The notes under the pieces: generated by a model
What the model saw: only the letters and a program-made list of their open reading frames with translations
What the model was told of the DNA's origin: nothing
Databases searched by the model: none
Position numbers and translations under genes: made by a program
NCBI GenBank assembly: GCA_041736305.1
Contig: JBGSTX010000316.1
Span: 1-12,239 of the forward strand
DNA from: Oligoflexus sp.
GTDB lineage: Bacteria > Bdellovibrionota_B > Oligoflexia > Oligoflexales > Oligoflexaceae
Reading direction: 5' to 3'
DNA: 12,239 nt
Shown: positions 5,714 through 12,239 of the stretch, piece after piece
Numbering within the stretch: the stretch's first letter is position 1
How the letters are laid out: every line of letters begins with the position of its first letter

Positions 5714-5719
5714 GCGACG

Positions 5720-5751
5720 AGCCGAAGACGACGCAAGCGTGGGGCTTTTTT
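5720..5751 (+). terminator. Weak or imperfect intrinsic terminator candidate after cysK
   Basis: AGCC...ACG-CAAG-CGT...GGCT followed by a T-run (5746-5751). The stem is interrupted. Confidence 0.3.
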
Positions 5752-5771
5752 GAGTCGTGAAGAGAAATAAC

Positions 5772-5800
5772 TTGTCAAAGAACAAGGCCCTGCCTATTGT
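5772..5800 (+). promoter_or_regulatory. Sigma-70 promoter for the metB/metC-like genes
   Basis: TTGTCA (5772-5777) - 17 nt - TATTGT (5795-5800). The predicted start near 5806-5808 coincides with the 5' end of the aptamer-like motif. Confidence 0.65.
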
Positions 5801-5807
5801 GAGCAGG

Positions 5808-5851
5808 TGAAGGATTTGTGGCCGATTGCAGCTTTAATCTGCTAAAGAGCC
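5808..5851 (+). ncRNA. SAM-II-like riboswitch aptamer candidate (compact variant)
   Basis: UGAAG-GAUUUG-UGGCCG-AUUGCA-G-CUUUA-AUCU-GCUAAAG-AGCC. The SAM-II core blocks GAUUU, UUGCA and GCUAAA are in the right order. P1 is UGAAG/CUUUA; the pseudoknot pairs GGC..UUGC with GC(U)AA..GCC. It lies upstream of Met biosynthesis genes. The P1 register and L3 length deviate from the canonical motif. Confidence 0.6.
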
Positions 5852-5903
5852 CGTCCTGTCTTGCAAGCCGCTACGCAGCTTTTGGAGACAGGATGTGTAC
5901 TTG

Positions 5904-5935
5904 AAAAAAGCCACGCTCCCGCGTGGTTTTTTTTT
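5904..5935 (+). terminator. Strong intrinsic terminator/attenuator inside the metB-like leader
   Basis: AAAAAAGCCACGC-TCCC-GCGTGG-TTTTTTTTT: a GC-rich stem plus 9 T, about 100 nt before the start codon. Confidence 0.85.
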
Positions 5936-6034
5936 GCGCAAATCCCGAGTAAATCGCTGATATTCGAGCGTCTTTTGAGGCGCGTCGCGATCCCTTGTTT
6001 TTTTCCTCGAAAGTACCTTACGGAGGATTTGCTC

Positions 6035-7219
6035 ATGTCTCAGGAAGCAAGCTTGTCAACGCTAGTCGTTCACGCCGGCGAAGCGCGTGAAAAAAGTGAC
6101 TTTGCCATCGTCGACCCCATTCACTGCGCGTCGACTTTCACCTTTGCCGACACGGCCGCAATCATCTCAATGCTCGAAAACGAAGGACTTGCCGAACGCG
6201 ACGAGTACGCACGCTACAGTAGTCCTAATATCAGGACGGTCGAGAAGAAGCTGGCTCAGCTCGAGGGGACCGCTGACGCCCTCCTCTGCACAACCGGAAT
6301 GTCCGCTCTCACGCTACTCTTTTGGAGTCATCTGCGGCCGGGCGATCACTTGCTTTACTTTGATCGCTGCTATCATCGCACTAGACAGTTCTGCAGCGAT
6401 TATCTCGAACAATTCGGGGTCCGCTGCGAAGCCATCCCGACCGGCGATTTTGCGGCCTTGGAAGCAGCCACCAACGCCAAGACCAAGTTGATTTTCACCG
6501 AACTGCCGACCAACCCCCACCTGGACGTCATCGATCTCGAGCGCCTCTGCAGCTTCGCTCGCGCCAAGGGCATAAAAACCTGTATCGACACGACCCTGGC
6601 GAGTCCCATCAACGTGCGGCCGGCTGAGTGGGGAGCCGACTTTATCCTGCATTCGGCGACCAAATATCTGGGTGGACATAATGATCTTCTCGCCGGCGTC
6701 CTTGCCGCTTCCGTCGAGGATTTGGCCCCAGTCCGCAAACTACAGGGTATCAGTGGTGCAATAGCGGCTCCTCATACGGCTTATCTCTTGCAAAGAGGGC
6801 TCAAGACTCTCGCTCTCCGCATCGCTCAGCAGAACCGCTCGGGCCAACGCGTGGCTGAATTTTTGGCCCAACACCCCCGAGTGGAAAAAGTCTACTATCC
6901 CGGGCTGGAAACGCATCCGAGCTATGCGCTGGCCCGCCGCTTTCTTAGTGGCTTTGGCGGTCTCATCAGCTTTGAACTCAAGACTGATAGGAAGGGTGCG
7001 AGTCGCTTCGTCGATGCGGTGCGGATCCCTCGCATAGGTCCAAGTCTAGGCGGGGTTGAATCCCTTATCGAACAACCGGCGATCATGAGTTTTTACCGAG
7101 CTTCCGAGGCCGAGCGGCGGCGCTGGGACATCAGCGATTCCTTAGTTCGTCTCGCGTTGGGAATCGAAGACAGTGAGGATCTCATTGCGGATCTTGAGCA
7201 AGCTTTAGCCACCATTTAA
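6035..7219 (+). CDS. metB: Cystathionine gamma-synthase, plant-type (Cys/Met metabolism PLP-dependent family)
   Basis: VHAGE, EYARY, CYHRTR, ELPTNP, PLP site HSATKYLGGHND, RGLKTLALR, YYPGL, PSLGGVESLIEQPAIMS. ATG 6035 follows GGAGG (6022-6026). The 5861 start in the ORF track lies within the leader. Confidence 0.8.
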   Translation: MSQEASLSTLVVHAGEAREKSDFAIVDPIHCASTFTFADTAAIISMLENEGLAERDEYARYSSPNIRTVEKKLAQLEGTADALLCTTGMSALTLLFWSHLRPGDHLLYFDRCYHRTRQFCSDYLEQFGVRCEAIPTGDFAALEAATNAKTKLIFTELPTNPHLDVIDLERLCSFARAKGIKTCIDTTLASPINVRPAEWGADFILHSATKYLGGHNDLLAGVLAASVEDLAPVRKLQGISGAIAAPHTAYLLQRGLKTLALRIAQQNRSGQRVAEFLAQHPRVEKVYYPGLETHPSYALARRFLSGFGGLISFELKTDRKGASRFVDAVRIPRIGPSLGGVESLIEQPAIMSFYRASEAERRRWDISDSLVRLALGIEDSEDLIADLEQALATI

Positions 7220-7231
7220 GAGGAGTAGTCC

Positions 7232-8443
7232 ATGCATCTTTCCACTCGGTCCATTCACAGTGGCAACAGCAAAGATCCGCTGACAGGCGCCGTCATCCCC
7301 CCGCTCTATCTTTCGTCGACATTTGCACCGGATGGGGATTTTTCTCAGGCACGCTTCGATTATTCCCGCAGCGGGAACCCGACTAGGGCCTGTCTGGAGA
7401 CGACTCTTGCGGCGCTCGAAGAAGGTTGCGGTGCCTTGGCTTTTTCCTCGGGCATGGCGGCTATCCACTGCGCTCTGCAGCTGCTCAAGACGGGCGAGCA
7501 TGTTCTCGCCAGCAGCGATATTTATGGAGGAACCTATCGCATCCTGCACAAAATCCTCAGTCGCGTGGGCATCGAAACGACCCTGGTTCAAATGAACGAT
7601 CTTGCGGCAGTTAGGGCCGCCATTCGCCCTAACACGCGCATCCTCTGGGCGGAGAATCCCGGCAATCCCCTGCTCTCGCTCGTAGATATCGAGGCGATAG
7701 CCGAGTTGGCCCACGAGCACGGTGCGCTCTTAGCTGTCGACAATACTTTCGCCACTCCGGTTGCGACACAAGCACTGACCCTCGGTGCCGATATCGTTAT
7801 GCATTCGGCTACTAAATTTCTCGGCGGTCACAGCGACCTCTTGGGGGGTGCCCTCATCGTCAAGGACCCAGCCTTGCTTAAGGAACTCTACTTCATCCAG
7901 AATGCAACGGGAGCCGTCATGGCTCCTTTCGATGCGTTTCTCTGTTCCCGCGGTATCAAGACCCTCGAGTTGCGTTTTCGAGAGCAGTGTAAAAGCGCCC
8001 TGTGGATCGCGCAGTACCTCGTTCATCATCCCGCCGTAAGCCGCGTCTACTACCCCGGTCTCCCTGATCATCCCCAGCACGCATTGGCGCAAAAACAACT
8101 GCGCGGCTACTACGGAGCAGTCGTCAGTTTCGAGCTTGATGCCGACTTTGCGGCAGCTCAGGCCTTTGTGAGCCATACCAAGCTTTTCCAGAGAGCCGTC
8201 AGTGTGGGGGCTGTAGAATCTCTTATTGAACAACCGGCTTCGATGTCGCATGCAAGCTACGACAGGCAGGATAGATTAAAAGCAGGCATACACGATGGCC
8301 TCATCCGACTCTCTGTGGGACTCGAGCATGTGCACGATTTACTAGCTGATTTGCAGCAGGCTTTTCATCATTTTAATGGAAGTGAGAAACGCGAGCTGGC
8401 AAGTTCTACGGCAGAGCTTCCGCTATCGACTCATGCCCATTAG
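7232..8443 (+). CDS. Cystathionine beta-/gamma-lyase (MetC/MccB-like trans-sulfuration enzyme)
   Basis: TGAVIPPLYLSSTF, FDYSRSGNPTR, FSSGMAAI, DIYGGTYR, VDNTFAT, HSATKFLGGHSD, SVGAVESLIEQPASMSHAS, GLIRLSVGLE. RBS AGGAG at 7221-7225. The family is secure; beta-lyase is favoured only because it is paired with the synthase. Confidence 0.85.
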   Translation: MHLSTRSIHSGNSKDPLTGAVIPPLYLSSTFAPDGDFSQARFDYSRSGNPTRACLETTLAALEEGCGALAFSSGMAAIHCALQLLKTGEHVLASSDIYGGTYRILHKILSRVGIETTLVQMNDLAAVRAAIRPNTRILWAENPGNPLLSLVDIEAIAELAHEHGALLAVDNTFATPVATQALTLGADIVMHSATKFLGGHSDLLGGALIVKDPALLKELYFIQNATGAVMAPFDAFLCSRGIKTLELRFREQCKSALWIAQYLVHHPAVSRVYYPGLPDHPQHALAQKQLRGYYGAVVSFELDADFAAAQAFVSHTKLFQRAVSVGAVESLIEQPASMSHASYDRQDRLKAGIHDGLIRLSVGLEHVHDLLADLQQAFHHFNGSEKRELASSTAELPLSTHAH

Positions 8444-9325: not shown

Positions 9326-9616
9326 CTACATTCCCATCCCCATATGGCCCTTACCCATCATCATCGGACATACGTCTGAGCCCATGGTTTGACAACTCGT
9401 CTGCATGTCTTGTCGACAATCGTTGAAAGTCTTGGCTTGGTCGCGCAGGCAGCCAGCCATTTTCTCGTGTGTCTGAGCCATGGTTTCGCGTTGAGCCAGG
9501 GTAAGTTCTTTTTGAACGACCTTAGCTTGTTCCTTGGACTTGCTTTGTGCCGATAAGTTCAACGCAGGTAGCAGACAACTCAAGATCAAAATTTTGTGTA
9601 AGAGAGGTAGTTTCAT
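9326..9616 (-). CDS. Small secreted Met/Cys-rich protein of unknown function (96 aa)
   Basis: ATG 9616 follows AAAGGA. Signal-peptide-like MKLPLLHKILILSCLLPALNLSA; the mature part has C-x10-C-x7-C-x7-C and a CPMMMGKGHMGMGM tail. The longer 9775 start overlaps the upstream gene. Confidence 0.85.
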   Translation of the reverse strand: MKLPLLHKILILSCLLPALNLSAQSKSKEQAKVVQKELTLAQRETMAQTHEKMAGCLRDQAKTFNDCRQDMQTSCQTMGSDVCPMMMGKGHMGMGM

Positions 9617-9658
9617 ATGAAGTTCCTTTAATGAACGGTTGATAGCACATTGCATCAA

Positions 9659-9675
9659 TGCAAGGTTCATTCCAA
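9659..9675 (-). promoter_or_regulatory. Sigma-54 (-24/-12) promoter candidate
   Basis: Minus strand TTGGAATGAACCTTGCA has GG-N10-GC spacing with TTGCA, against the consensus TGGCACGNNNNTTGCW. It lies about 43 nt upstream of the ATG. Confidence 0.55.
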
Positions 9676-9701
9676 GGTCCACTGAGATAGGCAACGTTCC
9701 C

Positions 9702-12239
9702 CTAGAGTTCAAGTACGATGTGATGCTCTTGGCGATCATCGAACAGCGAAATAGGCCCGCAGATCTCGAGTCCATCTAGCATGGTTTTCATCGCACCACC
9801 TACTTTGCCCTCATTCTTAATCGTGACCTTGTAGGAAGTTTCTTTATAAGAGAAATTAATCCGTAATATGGGCCATGCGCTTGGGAGTCGTGGAGTCAAT
9901 ATTAAGTGATTTTCCCGTAGGTCAAAACCTAAAAATGTTTCGACGATACTCCGATAAAGCCAGGCGGACGATCCCGTATACCACGTCCACCCTCCTCTAC
10001 CACCGTGAGTTGGCGCTGCATAGACATCGGCAGCGACCACATAGGGTTCCACTTTGTAGCGGGCTATGGCTTCCGCTGTCGCACTGTGGTGAATGGGGTT
10101 GATGAGAGTGAGAAGTTCTAAAGCTCGATCGTGCTCTCCGAGCTGCGCAAAAGCCATGATCGCCCATACGGCAGCATGAGTATACTGACCTCCATTCTCT
10201 CTGACTCCCGGTAGGTATCCCCTGATGTAACCAGGATGAGGCAGCTGCTTATCAAAGGGGGGCTCGAAAAGCTTGATGAGTCCTAAGTCGCCACTGACAA
10301 GACGTTGGTAGACGGCGTCCATGCCTTGCTTGGCGCGATTTCCTGTCGATGCTCCTGACAGAACGGCCCAACTTTGGGGCAAAGAATCGATCTGGCATTC
10401 CTGATTTTCTGACGATCCGAGAGGCGATCCATCGTCAAAAAAGGCGCGCAGATACCAGGCCCCGTCCCAGCCATGCCGCTCTATATTTTGCTTGAGAAGA
10501 CCAGTCTGTTCCCCGCACATCTCTGCGACGGCAGGATCACTCCGACGAGCGGCTATCGCAGCAAATTTCTCTAAAGTTTGGTAGAGAAAGAAGGCCAGCC
10601 ACACGCTTTCTCCCTTCCCATGAAGGCCGACTTGATTCATCCCATCATTCCAATCTCCACAACCAATCAGGGGCAATCCATGGGTGCCGAATTTCAATCC
10701 ATATTTCAAAGCTCGGACGCAATGATCATAGAGATCGCCTGATTCCTCCGCAAGCAGAGGCAGGCTATAGTCAGATTCAGTAGAGTCTGGGAGAGGCTTG
10801 GCATTTAGGTAAGGCCTTTCCTCGCTAAGTATCGCCCAATCGCCCGTAACCCTTATGTAGTGCTCGGTGACAAATGGCAGCCAAAGATAGTCATCGCTAA
10901 TCTTGGTTCGCACCCCGCGACCACTAGGTGGATGCCACCAGTGCTGCACATCTCCCTCAAGAAACTGCCTGCCTGCGCAGCGCAGAATATGAGCGCGGAC
11001 CATTTCCGGAGCGCAGTATACGACAGCCATCATGTCCTGAAGCTGATCCCGGAAACCATAGGCTCCTCCAGACTGATAGAAACCGCTGCGCCCCCAAATG
11101 CGGCTGGCAATCGTTTGGTAGAGGAGCCAGCCGTTGGCCAACACATTGATGGCCTGATCAGGAGTCTCGATCTGGATACGCCTAAGCATCTGCGACCACA
11201 TCTGCTGAACATTCGTGAAAGCCACTTGCAGATGCGCCAGAGAACGGAATTGGCGCCCTAATCTTCGCACCTCCTGTATATCCCGCCCCACCCCAAAGAC
11301 GAGGGCCAATTCTTTGGTCCCACCCGGCTCTAGTTCACAGCTCACTTGCAGGGCCAAACACGGATCGAACAGACCTCCCACTTGATTGCTGAGCTCCCTG
11401 CGATCCATTGCCGCGGGGCAGTTTAAAGAACTATTACGACCAATAAACTCAGTGCGATCGCCCGTAAAACTGCTGGGCTTCTCACTCGCGCTTACAAAGG
11501 CGATACGTCCACGAAAGTCTGCGGCAAAGACATTGTGGCCATAGAGAATTCCGTTCGTGGCATCGAACTCACTCACAATCTGATTGGATGCCCTTGATCT
11601 GAGTTCGCCCAGAACCATTTCGAAATACGCTGTCAGTGAAAGCTTCCGAGTCCGCCCCGAAAGATTACTTAGCTTGAGCAAAAGAATTTTAACGGGCTCA
11701 TCAGACGCGACGAAGACAGTCAGCTCAGAGCTGATGCCATGAGCACTCGTAGAAAAGATGCTGTAACCAAAGCCATGACGAACCTTGTAAGCGCCCTGTG
11801 TGGGTCTCGGCGCTGGCGTTGGTGACCAGTATTCGCCACTGAGTTCGTCCCTAATGTAGAGGGCTTCGCCCGTTGGATCAGATACGGGATCATTAAACCA
11901 AGGCGTAAGTCGATGTTCATGAGCATTTTCGGACCAGGTATAAGCACTTCCTCTTTCTGAAACGAGAGTCCCAAAATCAGGATTGGCCAAAACATTGACC
12001 CAAGGCATGGGGGTCGTTCGATCGGCATCGAGGCGCATGACATATTCACGTCCGTCTTGACTGAATCCTCCAATCCCATTATCAGAGAATAGCTCATCAG
12101 CGTTCTTCTGCTGATGGCGTATTTCGGGGCCCCGGGTTCTCTTGCGTCTTGCGAGTTCTCGCGTCGATAGTCCCTTTGGCAAGGCTGCAGGGGCTACGCG
12201 CTCAGCATTGATCTGCTCCGCCAAGCTACCTGCCTGATC
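9702..12239 (-). CDS. ndvB: GH94 glycoside phosphorylase domain, C-terminal part of a cyclic beta-1,2-glucan synthase (NdvB/ChvB/Cgs-like); gene starts beyond the window
   Basis: The frame is open to the window edge (DQAGSLAEQI...). Motifs NGIGGFSQDGREY, PWVNVLAN, RLTPW, RSGFYQSGGAYGFRDQLQD, GDVQHWWH, catalytic GDWNDGMN, PGVRENGGQYTHAA, EPYVVAADVY, GRGGWTWYTGS. Confidence 0.9.
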   Translation of the reverse strand, partial: DQAGSLAEQINAERVAPAALPKGLSTRELARRKRTRGPEIRHQQKNADELFSDNGIGGFSQDGREYVMRLDADRTTPMPWVNVLANPDFGTLVSERGSAYTWSENAHEHRLTPWFNDPVSDPTGEALYIRDELSGEYWSPTPAPRPTQGAYKVRHGFGYSIFSTSAHGISSELTVFVASDEPVKILLLKLSNLSGRTRKLSLTAYFEMVLGELRSRASNQIVSEFDATNGILYGHNVFAADFRGRIAFVSASEKPSSFTGDRTEFIGRNSSLNCPAAMDRRELSNQVGGLFDPCLALQVSCELEPGGTKELALVFGVGRDIQEVRRLGRQFRSLAHLQVAFTNVQQMWSQMLRRIQIETPDQAINVLANGWLLYQTIASRIWGRSGFYQSGGAYGFRDQLQDMMAVVYCAPEMVRAHILRCAGRQFLEGDVQHWWHPPSGRGVRTKISDDYLWLPFVTEHYIRVTGDWAILSEERPYLNAKPLPDSTESDYSLPLLAEESGDLYDHCVRALKYGLKFGTHGLPLIGCGDWNDGMNQVGLHGKGESVWLAFFLYQTLEKFAAIAARRSDPAVAEMCGEQTGLLKQNIERHGWDGAWYLRAFFDDGSPLGSSENQECQIDSLPQSWAVLSGASTGNRAKQGMDAVYQRLVSGDLGLIKLFEPPFDKQLPHPGYIRGYLPGVRENGGQYTHAAVWAIMAFAQLGEHDRALELLTLINPIHHSATAEAIARYKVEPYVVAADVYAAPTHGGRGGWTWYTGSSAWLYRSIVETFLGFDLRENHLILTPRLPSAWPILRINFSYKETSYKVTIKNEGKVGGAMKTMLDGLEICGPISLFDDRQEHHIVLEL

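Follow-up and report, generated by a model that had tools for sequence, protein, structure and literature searches.

SAM-II riboswitches (RF00521; Corbino 2005, PMC1273637) are described in the parts of PMC2258182, PMC1273637 and PMC6061858 available to us as mostly linked to terminators and transcriptional, with metX called a rare translational one; a promoter just before P1 and terminators are standard in these accounts. PMC6061858 also counts the majority of SAM-II switches as transcriptional, although recent studies had centred on the translational example metX, and the accessible text of PMC2258182 (2007) states that the SAM-II mechanism was not established. According to Fig. S5 of PMC6061858, SAM-II has a P1 of at least 6 bp and a P2 of always 4 bp, and SAM-V (RF01826; Huang and Lilley 2018, PMC6061858) has a P1 of 4 bp and a P2 of 6 bp, together with a P3 and the Shine-Dalgarno (SD) sequence. 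Unrecognised SAM-II subfamilies have been reported before, as the available text of PMC4239095 and PMC2864571 indicates. One is the SAM-II long loops family (RF01726; Weinberg 2010, PMC2864571), another the beta-proteobacterial metXZ element (Leyn 2014, PMC4239095), which is called canonical SAM-II in the accessible part of PMC5473149.

The window analysed here is the whole stretch of 12,239 nucleotides from an Oligoflexus genome. Ahead of two genes predicted to make homocysteine it contains a 42-base RNA element that is a compact, conserved relative of aptamers of SAM-II and SAM-V type and is likely to bind SAM. Judging from sequence comparison, we consider it highly probable that the element binds SAM and acts as a transcriptional OFF switch for these genes.

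With SAM-II, as far as the sources at hand describe it, the element shares the core blocks GAUUUG, UUGCA and GCUAAA, a GC-rich P2a, the absence of P3, a promoter a few bases before P1, a terminator between aptamer and open reading frame, and a position ahead of methionine-biosynthesis genes. It differs in a P1 of 2–3 bp instead of about 6, in the absence of the U by which P1 is closed opposite the G that follows UUGCA, in a P2 of probably 6 rather than 4 bp, in an L3 of 2–4 nt without the A-rich tract, in a P2a core of 3 bp where 5 bp are given for 60 % of SAM-II, and in its hosts, which are Pirellulales and Oligoflexus-like genomes. With SAM-V it has in common the short P1, the same ligand-pocket positions and, probably, a six-pair P2 with two plain Watson-Crick pairs beside P1; unlike SAM-V, it has neither the P3 hairpin nor the extruded C6, its P1 is shorter than 4 bp, it has a 3-bp GC P2a, and the SD lies about 175 nt downstream behind a terminator, not at the aptamer 3' end, and control would be by a terminator instead of translational. 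The long-loop family resembles it in being a subfamily that needed its own model and in the consensus U directly before GCUAAA, whereas its Bacteroidetes and marine hosts, longer P1 and A-rich loop, as given in the accessible text, set it apart. The metXZ element shares a SAM-II aptamer with a downstream terminator, was presented by its authors as a new element following an Rfam scan, and had an antiterminator speculated; in the portion of PMC4239095 available, however, it has a P1 of 5–6 bp (GCGCC/GGCGC), a canonical junction with a bulged base and a long L3, its terminators are unconserved in sequence and its antiterminator is attributed to other regions.

By its predicted pocket and fold the variant belongs to the general SAM-II/V class, but no named type agrees with it in all defining helix lengths, and it stays below the Rfam threshold of every one. 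In the literature covered, mostly the text of openly available papers, we found no description of the variant, nor of SAM-II in Planctomycetota or Oligoflexus; the sources compared, as far as accessible, also included PMC3326309, PMC3303485, PMC12667848 and 10.1101/2024.10.14.618325. A SAM riboswitch that terminates transcription of methionine genes is a known concept; what is new is the aptamer, a minimal hybrid, together with its conserved antiterminator and the CAAAUCC element described below. In its P1/P2 anatomy the variant bridges SAM-II and SAM-V, and it would be smaller than the 52–55 nt SAM-V constructs mentioned in the available literature, offering a natural test of a minimal SAM pseudoknot.

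The locus and its predicted methionine genes

In the window a sulfate-assimilation/cysteine operon (cysI-like, cysH, cysD, cysN, serine acetyltransferase, cysK) is followed by a 321-nt intergenic region and by two genes for Cys/Met PLP enzymes. Gene 1 (6035–7219, plus strand) matches PF01053 and likely encodes a plant-like cystathionine gamma-synthase; its best PDB match is cystathionine gamma-synthase 1i41/1qgn (445 aa, E 4e-98; next match 2e-82). The 1i41/1qgn protein is a plant enzyme, and plant cystathionine gamma-synthase uses O-phosphohomoserine. The gene 1 enzyme may do the same, which fits the finding that neither MetA nor MetX was detected above cut-off in the source genome (92.7 % complete). 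Gene 2 (7232–8443, plus strand) is closest to cystathionine lyases and likely encodes a cystathionine beta-lyase or gamma-lyase; none of the 25 NCBIfam families listed reached its curated cut-off, and we infer the exact activity. Together, the two enzymes are predicted to turn cysteine into homocysteine, a step that a SAM sensor should repress. One homologue, 66 % identical, bears the label Oligoflexus; the relatives that come next share about 57 % identity and carry the labels Pirellulales or Planctomycetia. Among the loci with at least 1 kb of downstream sequence, 83 of 84 sit ahead of a gene 1 orthologue; with PF01053 and the cystathionine gamma-synthase match, this agrees with the methionine-pathway context claimed in the original prediction.

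The start codon of gene 1 is the ATG at 6035, preferred because orthologues align from there. It stands behind the SD sequence GGAGG (6022–6026), which overlaps GGAUUUGC (6025–6032), so that the region as a whole spans 6022–6032 on the plus strand. A 452-aa open reading frame that opens with the TTG at 5861 prolongs gene 1 in frame across the leader, and this TTG was rejected as the gene 1 start. The ATG lies 188 nt past the end of the aptamer core at 5847, and the distance of about 185 nt given earlier was accurate; it had been considered unusual for SAM-II, but this distance and the terminator are both ordinary, since most SAM-II switches are described as transcriptional. The view that SAM-II usually occludes an adjacent SD is not supported by PMC2258182, PMC1273637 and PMC6061858 in their accessible parts.

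A few other features of the locus were noted. A hairpin with a run of six U residues lies 3' of cysK (5714–5758) and may be where the cysteine operon terminates, which would set that operon apart from the SAM-controlled unit; cysK is also found upstream of this unit in several relatives, and in others the unit is placed elsewhere. Two reading frames on the minus strand are unrelated to the riboswitch: a GH94 glycoside phosphorylase fragment that runs off the contig (9702–12224) and a 149-aa protein (9326–9775) that has no Pfam or NCBIfam match and looked secreted by eye.

Aptamer anatomy and distribution

The three core blocks GATTTG (5813–5818), TTGCA (5826–5830) and GCTAAAG (5841–5847) all occur where the original prediction had placed them, within 5813–5847. 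Pattern searches gave 134 matches, and five were dropped: L059, L065 and L132 are canonical SAM-II, L053 lies inside a gene and is likely due to chance, and L138 is divergent. The remaining 129 loci were counted; GATTT was required by the search patterns, so its conservation there is built in. All of the following elements are on the plus strand. The P1 5' strand, AAG (5810–5812, possibly reaching 5808), pairs with the 3' strand CUU (5832–5834) as G5812–C5832, A5811–U5833 and A5810–U5834. Over the 129 loci, pairs 1 to 5 counted from the junction can form in 124, 128, 95, 60 and 32, so that pairing drops to 60/129 by the fourth pair and the P1 of 2–3 bp is indeed short, as had been claimed. Exchanges occur between G-C and A-U and among A-U, C-G and U-A, with pair 2 being GC in 116 and AU in 11 loci; other registers of P1 were tried and fitted less well. 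In the predicted structure as a whole, 92 % of cells were paired, compared with 23–57 % in slid controls. Together with the covariation of P1, this supports the proposed SAM-II-like pseudoknot.

GAUUUG (5813–5818) is the predicted third strand of the triplex and corresponds, by mapping to Table S4 of PMC6061858, to SAM-V G5, A7, U8, U9, U10 and G11, that is, G5813=G5, A5814=A7, U5815–U5817=U8–U10 and G5818=G11. Further equivalents are A5825=A18, U5826/U5827/G5828=U19/U20/G21, U5843=U47 and A5844–A5846=A48–A50. The pocket bases U8, U9, U10, U19, U20, G21, C46, U47, A48, A49 and A50 (SAM-V numbering) are all identical in the window, and the same holds for all positions listed as touching the ligand in SAM-V or SAM-II. 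Also intact in the window copy is the U-A.U triple, to which the text available ascribes selection of the SAM sulfonium. Segment 5817–5822, UGUGGC, would have two uses: when the aptamer is folded it would supply the P2a 5' strand (5820–5822) and two triplex bases, and otherwise the 5' strand of an antiterminator. The P2a 3' strand GCC (5849–5851) lies outside the search pattern and reads G, C and C in 128, 128 and 127 of 129 loci; no two-sided change of P2a was seen across the loci.

A5825 and the P2 5' strand UUGCAG (5826–5831) make up 5825–5831, the P1 3' strand and the short L3 make up 5832–5838, and the P2 3' strand CUGC-U-AA occupies 5839–5846. In the latter, the bulged U5843 is the predicted partner of the SAM adenine and A5846 the predicted aminoacyl contact, roles transferred from SAM-V U47/A50 and SAM-II U44 as these are described in the accessible sources. 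The original prediction had seen an extra G before the P1 3' strand; this residue, G5831, is present, but it likely pairs with C5839, extending P2 to 6 bp as in SAM-V. Since this pairing lengthens P2, L3 is 2–4 nt and not the 4–5 nt proposed; 4–11 nt lie between the P2 strands in the 129 loci, the P1 3' strand included. Neither the C nor the U before GCUAA was in the search pattern, and they occur in 128/129 and 129/129 loci. With these positions left free, the arrangement TTGCAG...CTGCTAAA appeared by inspection in 135 of 138 matches, a denominator that retains two apparently chance matches (G577:C50 and G656:C22). A metagenome scan demanding a base other than G at the position of 5831 returned exactly one locus, L184, which lies upstream of the same gene as gene 1 and in which the partner C is changed to U, giving a compensatory A-U in place of G-C. 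There is also a counter-example: L185 in genome G554, a real copy, lacks both the G and its CU partner. The canonical SAM-II junction fits L041. Five of the six P2 pairs never vary, so the support for P2, namely invariance and a single compensatory sequence, is weaker than that for P1.

It had been proposed that covariance models would miss such a variant, and this proved correct. At gathering threshold Rfam gave no match in the window, which scored 13.1 bits with RF00521 SAM_alpha (cut-off 36) and 13.5 bits with RF01726 SAM-II long loops (cut-off 44); RF01826 SAM-V (cut-off 41 bits) gave no match at E<=10 in five variant-carrying genomes. The top window matches at E<=10 (Leu_leader, RNAI, Phe_leader and others) were matches to the terminator hairpin far under their cut-offs and were rejected. 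None of the 31 compact loci (30 distinct) reached an Rfam cut-off, and three of three canonical loci used as positive controls scored 50–53 bits with RF00521. In a genome-wide RF00521 search the site ranked 9th of 11, with eight other sites scoring equal or higher; a score of this size does not rise above the noise of this genome, and the case therefore rests on comparative evidence. A variant model built from alignment A1, with 52 chosen sequences rather than all loci, scored 58 bits for the window (a training member), 48–51 bits for two held-out bridge copies and 29–30 bits for canonical SAM-II, and it found one copy in the genome of the window. Five weak matches to this model at 22–24 bits (L198–L202) were inspected and not accepted. 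Five planctomycetotal loci, L175–L179 (in G344, G386, G510, G400 and G314), combine a canonical long P1 with the junction of the variant; one of them passes the RF00521 cut-off (L176, 36.3 bits), and L177 and L179 score 48–51 bits with the variant model. These long-P1 forms bridge the compact variant to the SAM_alpha family. They are followed by a terminator and an open reading frame of 170–173 aa, a candidate SAM-regulated gene with no Pfam match in the one tested, L175.

Among 60 relatives we found 11 orthologues of gene 1, and in 10 of the 11 leaders the aptamer is present along with the terminator and a promoter that lies about 12 nt upstream; the eleventh has 133 nt of upstream sequence only. 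Recurrence of this arrangement in leaders whose flanks have diverged exceeds chance. Gene 1 and the motif are both carried by the same 9 of 13 genomes of the genus, the other four being 80–90 % complete, and class-wide 13 of 131 genomes match, one probably by chance. A scan of GTDB contigs found at least 120 loci, nearly all labelled as Pirellulales or other Planctomycetota, with three from Gemmatimonadota and one from a gammaproteobacterium among the matches listed. With a relaxed pattern 136 of 201 Pirellulales genomes matched, as did 9 of 401 genomes spread evenly over the phylum, and backwards-pattern controls gave 0 matches; about two-thirds of the sampled Pirellulales genomes thus carry a likely riboswitch that Rfam does not call, and this blind spot is now filled. 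These locus counts are not independent, because the genomes are related. The bare three-block pattern gave five strict matches in the source genome, four of them at other sites, so the core blocks alone are not significant without conservation. A quick tree, with its careful search unfinished, placed the genus of the window beside, not inside, Pirellulales. The patchy spread within the class suggests a lateral gain of gene plus switch, for which the tree names no donor. Of the excluded matches, the three from Gemmatimonadota (L059, L065, L132; 50–53 bits) are followed by proteins with a likeness, judged by eye, to methionine synthase, and L138, from a gammaproteobacterial MAG, is SAM-II-like with 26 bits in the new model, an A-rich L3 and no clear P2a.

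Promoter, terminator and a proposed, conserved antiterminator

The promoter proposed at 5772–5800 (plus strand) is found there as a sigma70-type promoter-like sequence with -35 TTGTCA, a 17-nt spacer and -10 TATTGT, which would place the start at about 5806–5808. A promoter scan found two promoter-like sites where shuffles gave an expectation of 0.3. The position recurs across loci: TTG..N16-18..TANNNT stands just 5' of the aptamer in 17/17 loci of the Oligoflexales group and in 105/116 other loci, versus 0/51 and 5/348 control windows, respectively.

Behind the aptamer, an 11-bp hairpin including two G.U pairs (5852–5862/5885–5895, spanning 5852–5895, plus strand) lies exactly where it had been described; neither its sequence nor its length is conserved, and in relatives it is replaced by other or much shorter hairpins. 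It is better regarded as a variable spacer, which would bring the terminator arm beside the aptamer. The intrinsic terminator at 5904–5935 (plus strand) was likewise located correctly and recurs in the orthologous leaders; its stem is 5910–5916/5921–5927, with A6 before it and T9 at 5927–5935. A consensus terminator scan listed the terminator hairpin on the minus strand only. In a near-identical strain T5927C changes a G.U of the stem to G-C, and the aptamer is unchanged. By inspection, there is no short open reading frame between promoter and terminator, which disfavours a leader-peptide attenuator.

The 5' arm of the terminator, GCCACG (5910–5915), would form the 3' strand of the antiterminator with UGUGGC (5817–5822). 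This pairing had been put forward as a candidate, and its complementarity recurs across loci and appears in folds of the nascent RNA. A strict terminator filter was passed by 68 of the 129 loci; 125 had enough sequence, and 57 of these were without a strict terminator. Arms starting with GCCRC, the complement of the aptamer GYGGC, were seen in 61 of the 68 loci, whereas the 764 control terminators, taken from the genome of the window (51 % GC), included 16; an in-phylum control from the locus flanks gave 1/12. The pairing between aptamer and arm covers six positions and falls off on either side, with position 4 paired in 59/61 and position 6 in 56/61 (UG 32, UA 24). GCCRC is missing from seven of the 68 terminators; an A.C mismatch occurs in L051, and in L043 the sequence is GCCAG. 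The complementarity is retained at aptamer-terminator distances from about 24 to more than 150 nt. These data support an antiterminator that is conserved in sequence across two phyla and is new here. Aptamer and antiterminator would be mutually exclusive, because GGC pairs with GCC 5849–5851 in P2a and U5817/G5818 join the triplex. Unconstrained folds of nascent RNA ending at 5915–5924 contain the antiterminator, whereas from 5927 on the terminator fold wins, and at full length it is 9.7 kcal/mol better than the antiterminator.

As 57 of 125 loci are without a strict terminator, either some loci lack the terminator platform or the filter is overly stringent, and with 68/129 passing, many Pirellulales copies may work otherwise. 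Copies such as L062, L092, L128, L129, L145, L166 and similar ones from Pirellulaceae have no terminator by the filter, and some of these have an in-frame start near the aptamer and are possible translational versions. We also noticed that an ACUUG-A-rich stretch often precedes the terminator arm (5897–5909 in the window; also L049, L050 and many Pirellulales loci), and in the window it can lengthen the antiterminator duplex (-10.8 kcal/mol).

Proposed mode of control and the CAAAUCC element

Just beyond the coordinates of the original prediction lies a further element that is new here, CGCAAAUCC (5937–5945, plus strand), which is complementary to the aptamer at 5812–5820 and partly to 6025–6032. 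In the order of the window, 14 of 16 loci, all of them related to one another, have CAAATCC no more than 20 nt past the U tract, compared with 5 of 3335 U tracts in the genome. Pairing with the aptamer 5' end was better than in shuffled sequences (p<=0.05) in 13/16 loci; in L042 both the element and the aptamer 5' end are different, and they match each other over about 9–10 bp. Pairing of the element with the SD beat shuffles in just 3/16 loci. In folds with the aptamer withheld, the element pairs with the SD region (GGAUUUGC, 6025–6032) in the window and several relatives, and under this condition the cost of opening the SD went up in 11/16 loci and down in one, with a shift of only 1.3 kcal/mol in the window. 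In Planctomycetota 4 of 53 loci were significant, and the element was judged absent there. It cannot affect termination, because it is made after the terminator. We read it as likely a lock on the ON state and possibly a translational second switch in the genus of the window.

Transcription would start a few bases before P1. With SAM, the H-type pseudoknot would close (P1 of 2–3 bp; P2 of 6 bp, UUGCAG/CUGC-U-AA; P2a of 3 bp, GGC/GCC), GAUUUG would lie in the major groove and SAM would sit on U5843, U5816/U5827 and A5846; segment 5817–5822 would then be occupied, the terminator 5910–5927 would fold and the polymerase would stop at the U tract. Without SAM, 5817–5822 would capture the emerging terminator 5' arm and the polymerase would read through. 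Since the terminator, once complete, is the more stable structure, such a switch would have to work kinetically. In the genus of the window, CAAAUCC in the read-through mRNA would pair with the aptamer 5' end and lock the aptamer open, which is a less certain step.

It could be argued that the same SAM aptamer is followed by a constitutive or leaky terminator and that the main effect of SAM is on translation or on the stability of the RNA, which is what has been argued for S. meliloti metA; in this genus, CAAAUCC would mediate it by swapping between the aptamer and the ribosome-binding region. We think this unlikely. The terminator is far more stable at equilibrium, PMC9373788 describes a SAM-II switch followed by a terminator that does not depend on SAM, and the SD became harder to open in 11 of 16 loci with the aptamer withheld (easier in 1); however, terminator arms that start with the aptamer complement in two phyla (61/68 vs 16/764) would be left unexplained, CAAAUCC is absent in Planctomycetota (4/53 significant) and the SD shift in the window is just 1.3 kcal/mol.

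That the switch derives from SAM-II with a changed ligand, such as SAH or another sulfur-pathway metabolite, seems to us very unlikely: the altered P1/P2 junction and the very short P1 would suit it, as would five extra copies from the same genus with A to G at the A7 equivalent ahead of non-Met genes, but no ligand-contact base differs in the window copy, its U-A.U sulfonium triple is intact and the context is methionine synthesis in 83/84 loci. The conserved sequence might also be a protein-binding site (a DNA operator or the target of an RNA-binding protein) or a degenerate, non-switching relic of a riboswitch, as the nearly invariant core, a trait that operators also show, and the noise-level Rfam scores (13 bits, with eight other genome sites as high or higher) would allow. 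This we regard as extremely improbable, because covariation of the kind shown by RNA helices is seen in P1 and in one pair of P2, the complementarity is kept while the terminator distance ranges from about 24 to more than 150 nt, and the motif is kept in 136/201 Pirellulales genomes.

For the transcriptional OFF switch that we favour, the antiterminator sequence is constant between the two phyla, so that two-base mutations could test the mechanism. The transcript level of plant cystathionine gamma-synthase is also under SAM feedback, as the accessible text of PMC3878949 reports, and if SAM is the ligand, the same metabolite would control the same step as in plants by a different route. More tentatively, and with rather less than even confidence, we propose that the variant may be a third SAM-II/V architectural type (about 40 nt, combining the junction of SAM-V with the core of SAM-II and a P1 of 2–3 bp) that in this genus would run two switches from one strand, the 3' half UGUGGC gating the terminator and the 5' half GGAUUUG gating a separate anti-Shine-Dalgarno element, with duplicated A-to-G copies.

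Extra copies of the switch occur in genomes of the same genus at L196:1501–1547 (plus strand), L204, L205, L206, L208 and L190 (in G004, G002, G008, G007 twice and G006). Five of them read GGUUUG for GAUUUG, the change falling on the SAM-V A7 equivalent, and the copy in G006 keeps the A; the A-to-G copies may have a shifted affinity or ligand and may control unrelated genes. All extra copies retain the promoter, the terminator and CAAAUCC. Five precede an open reading frame of 67–81 aa that gave no usable Atlas match, and L208 precedes a 245-aa protein that looked DNA-binding by eye.
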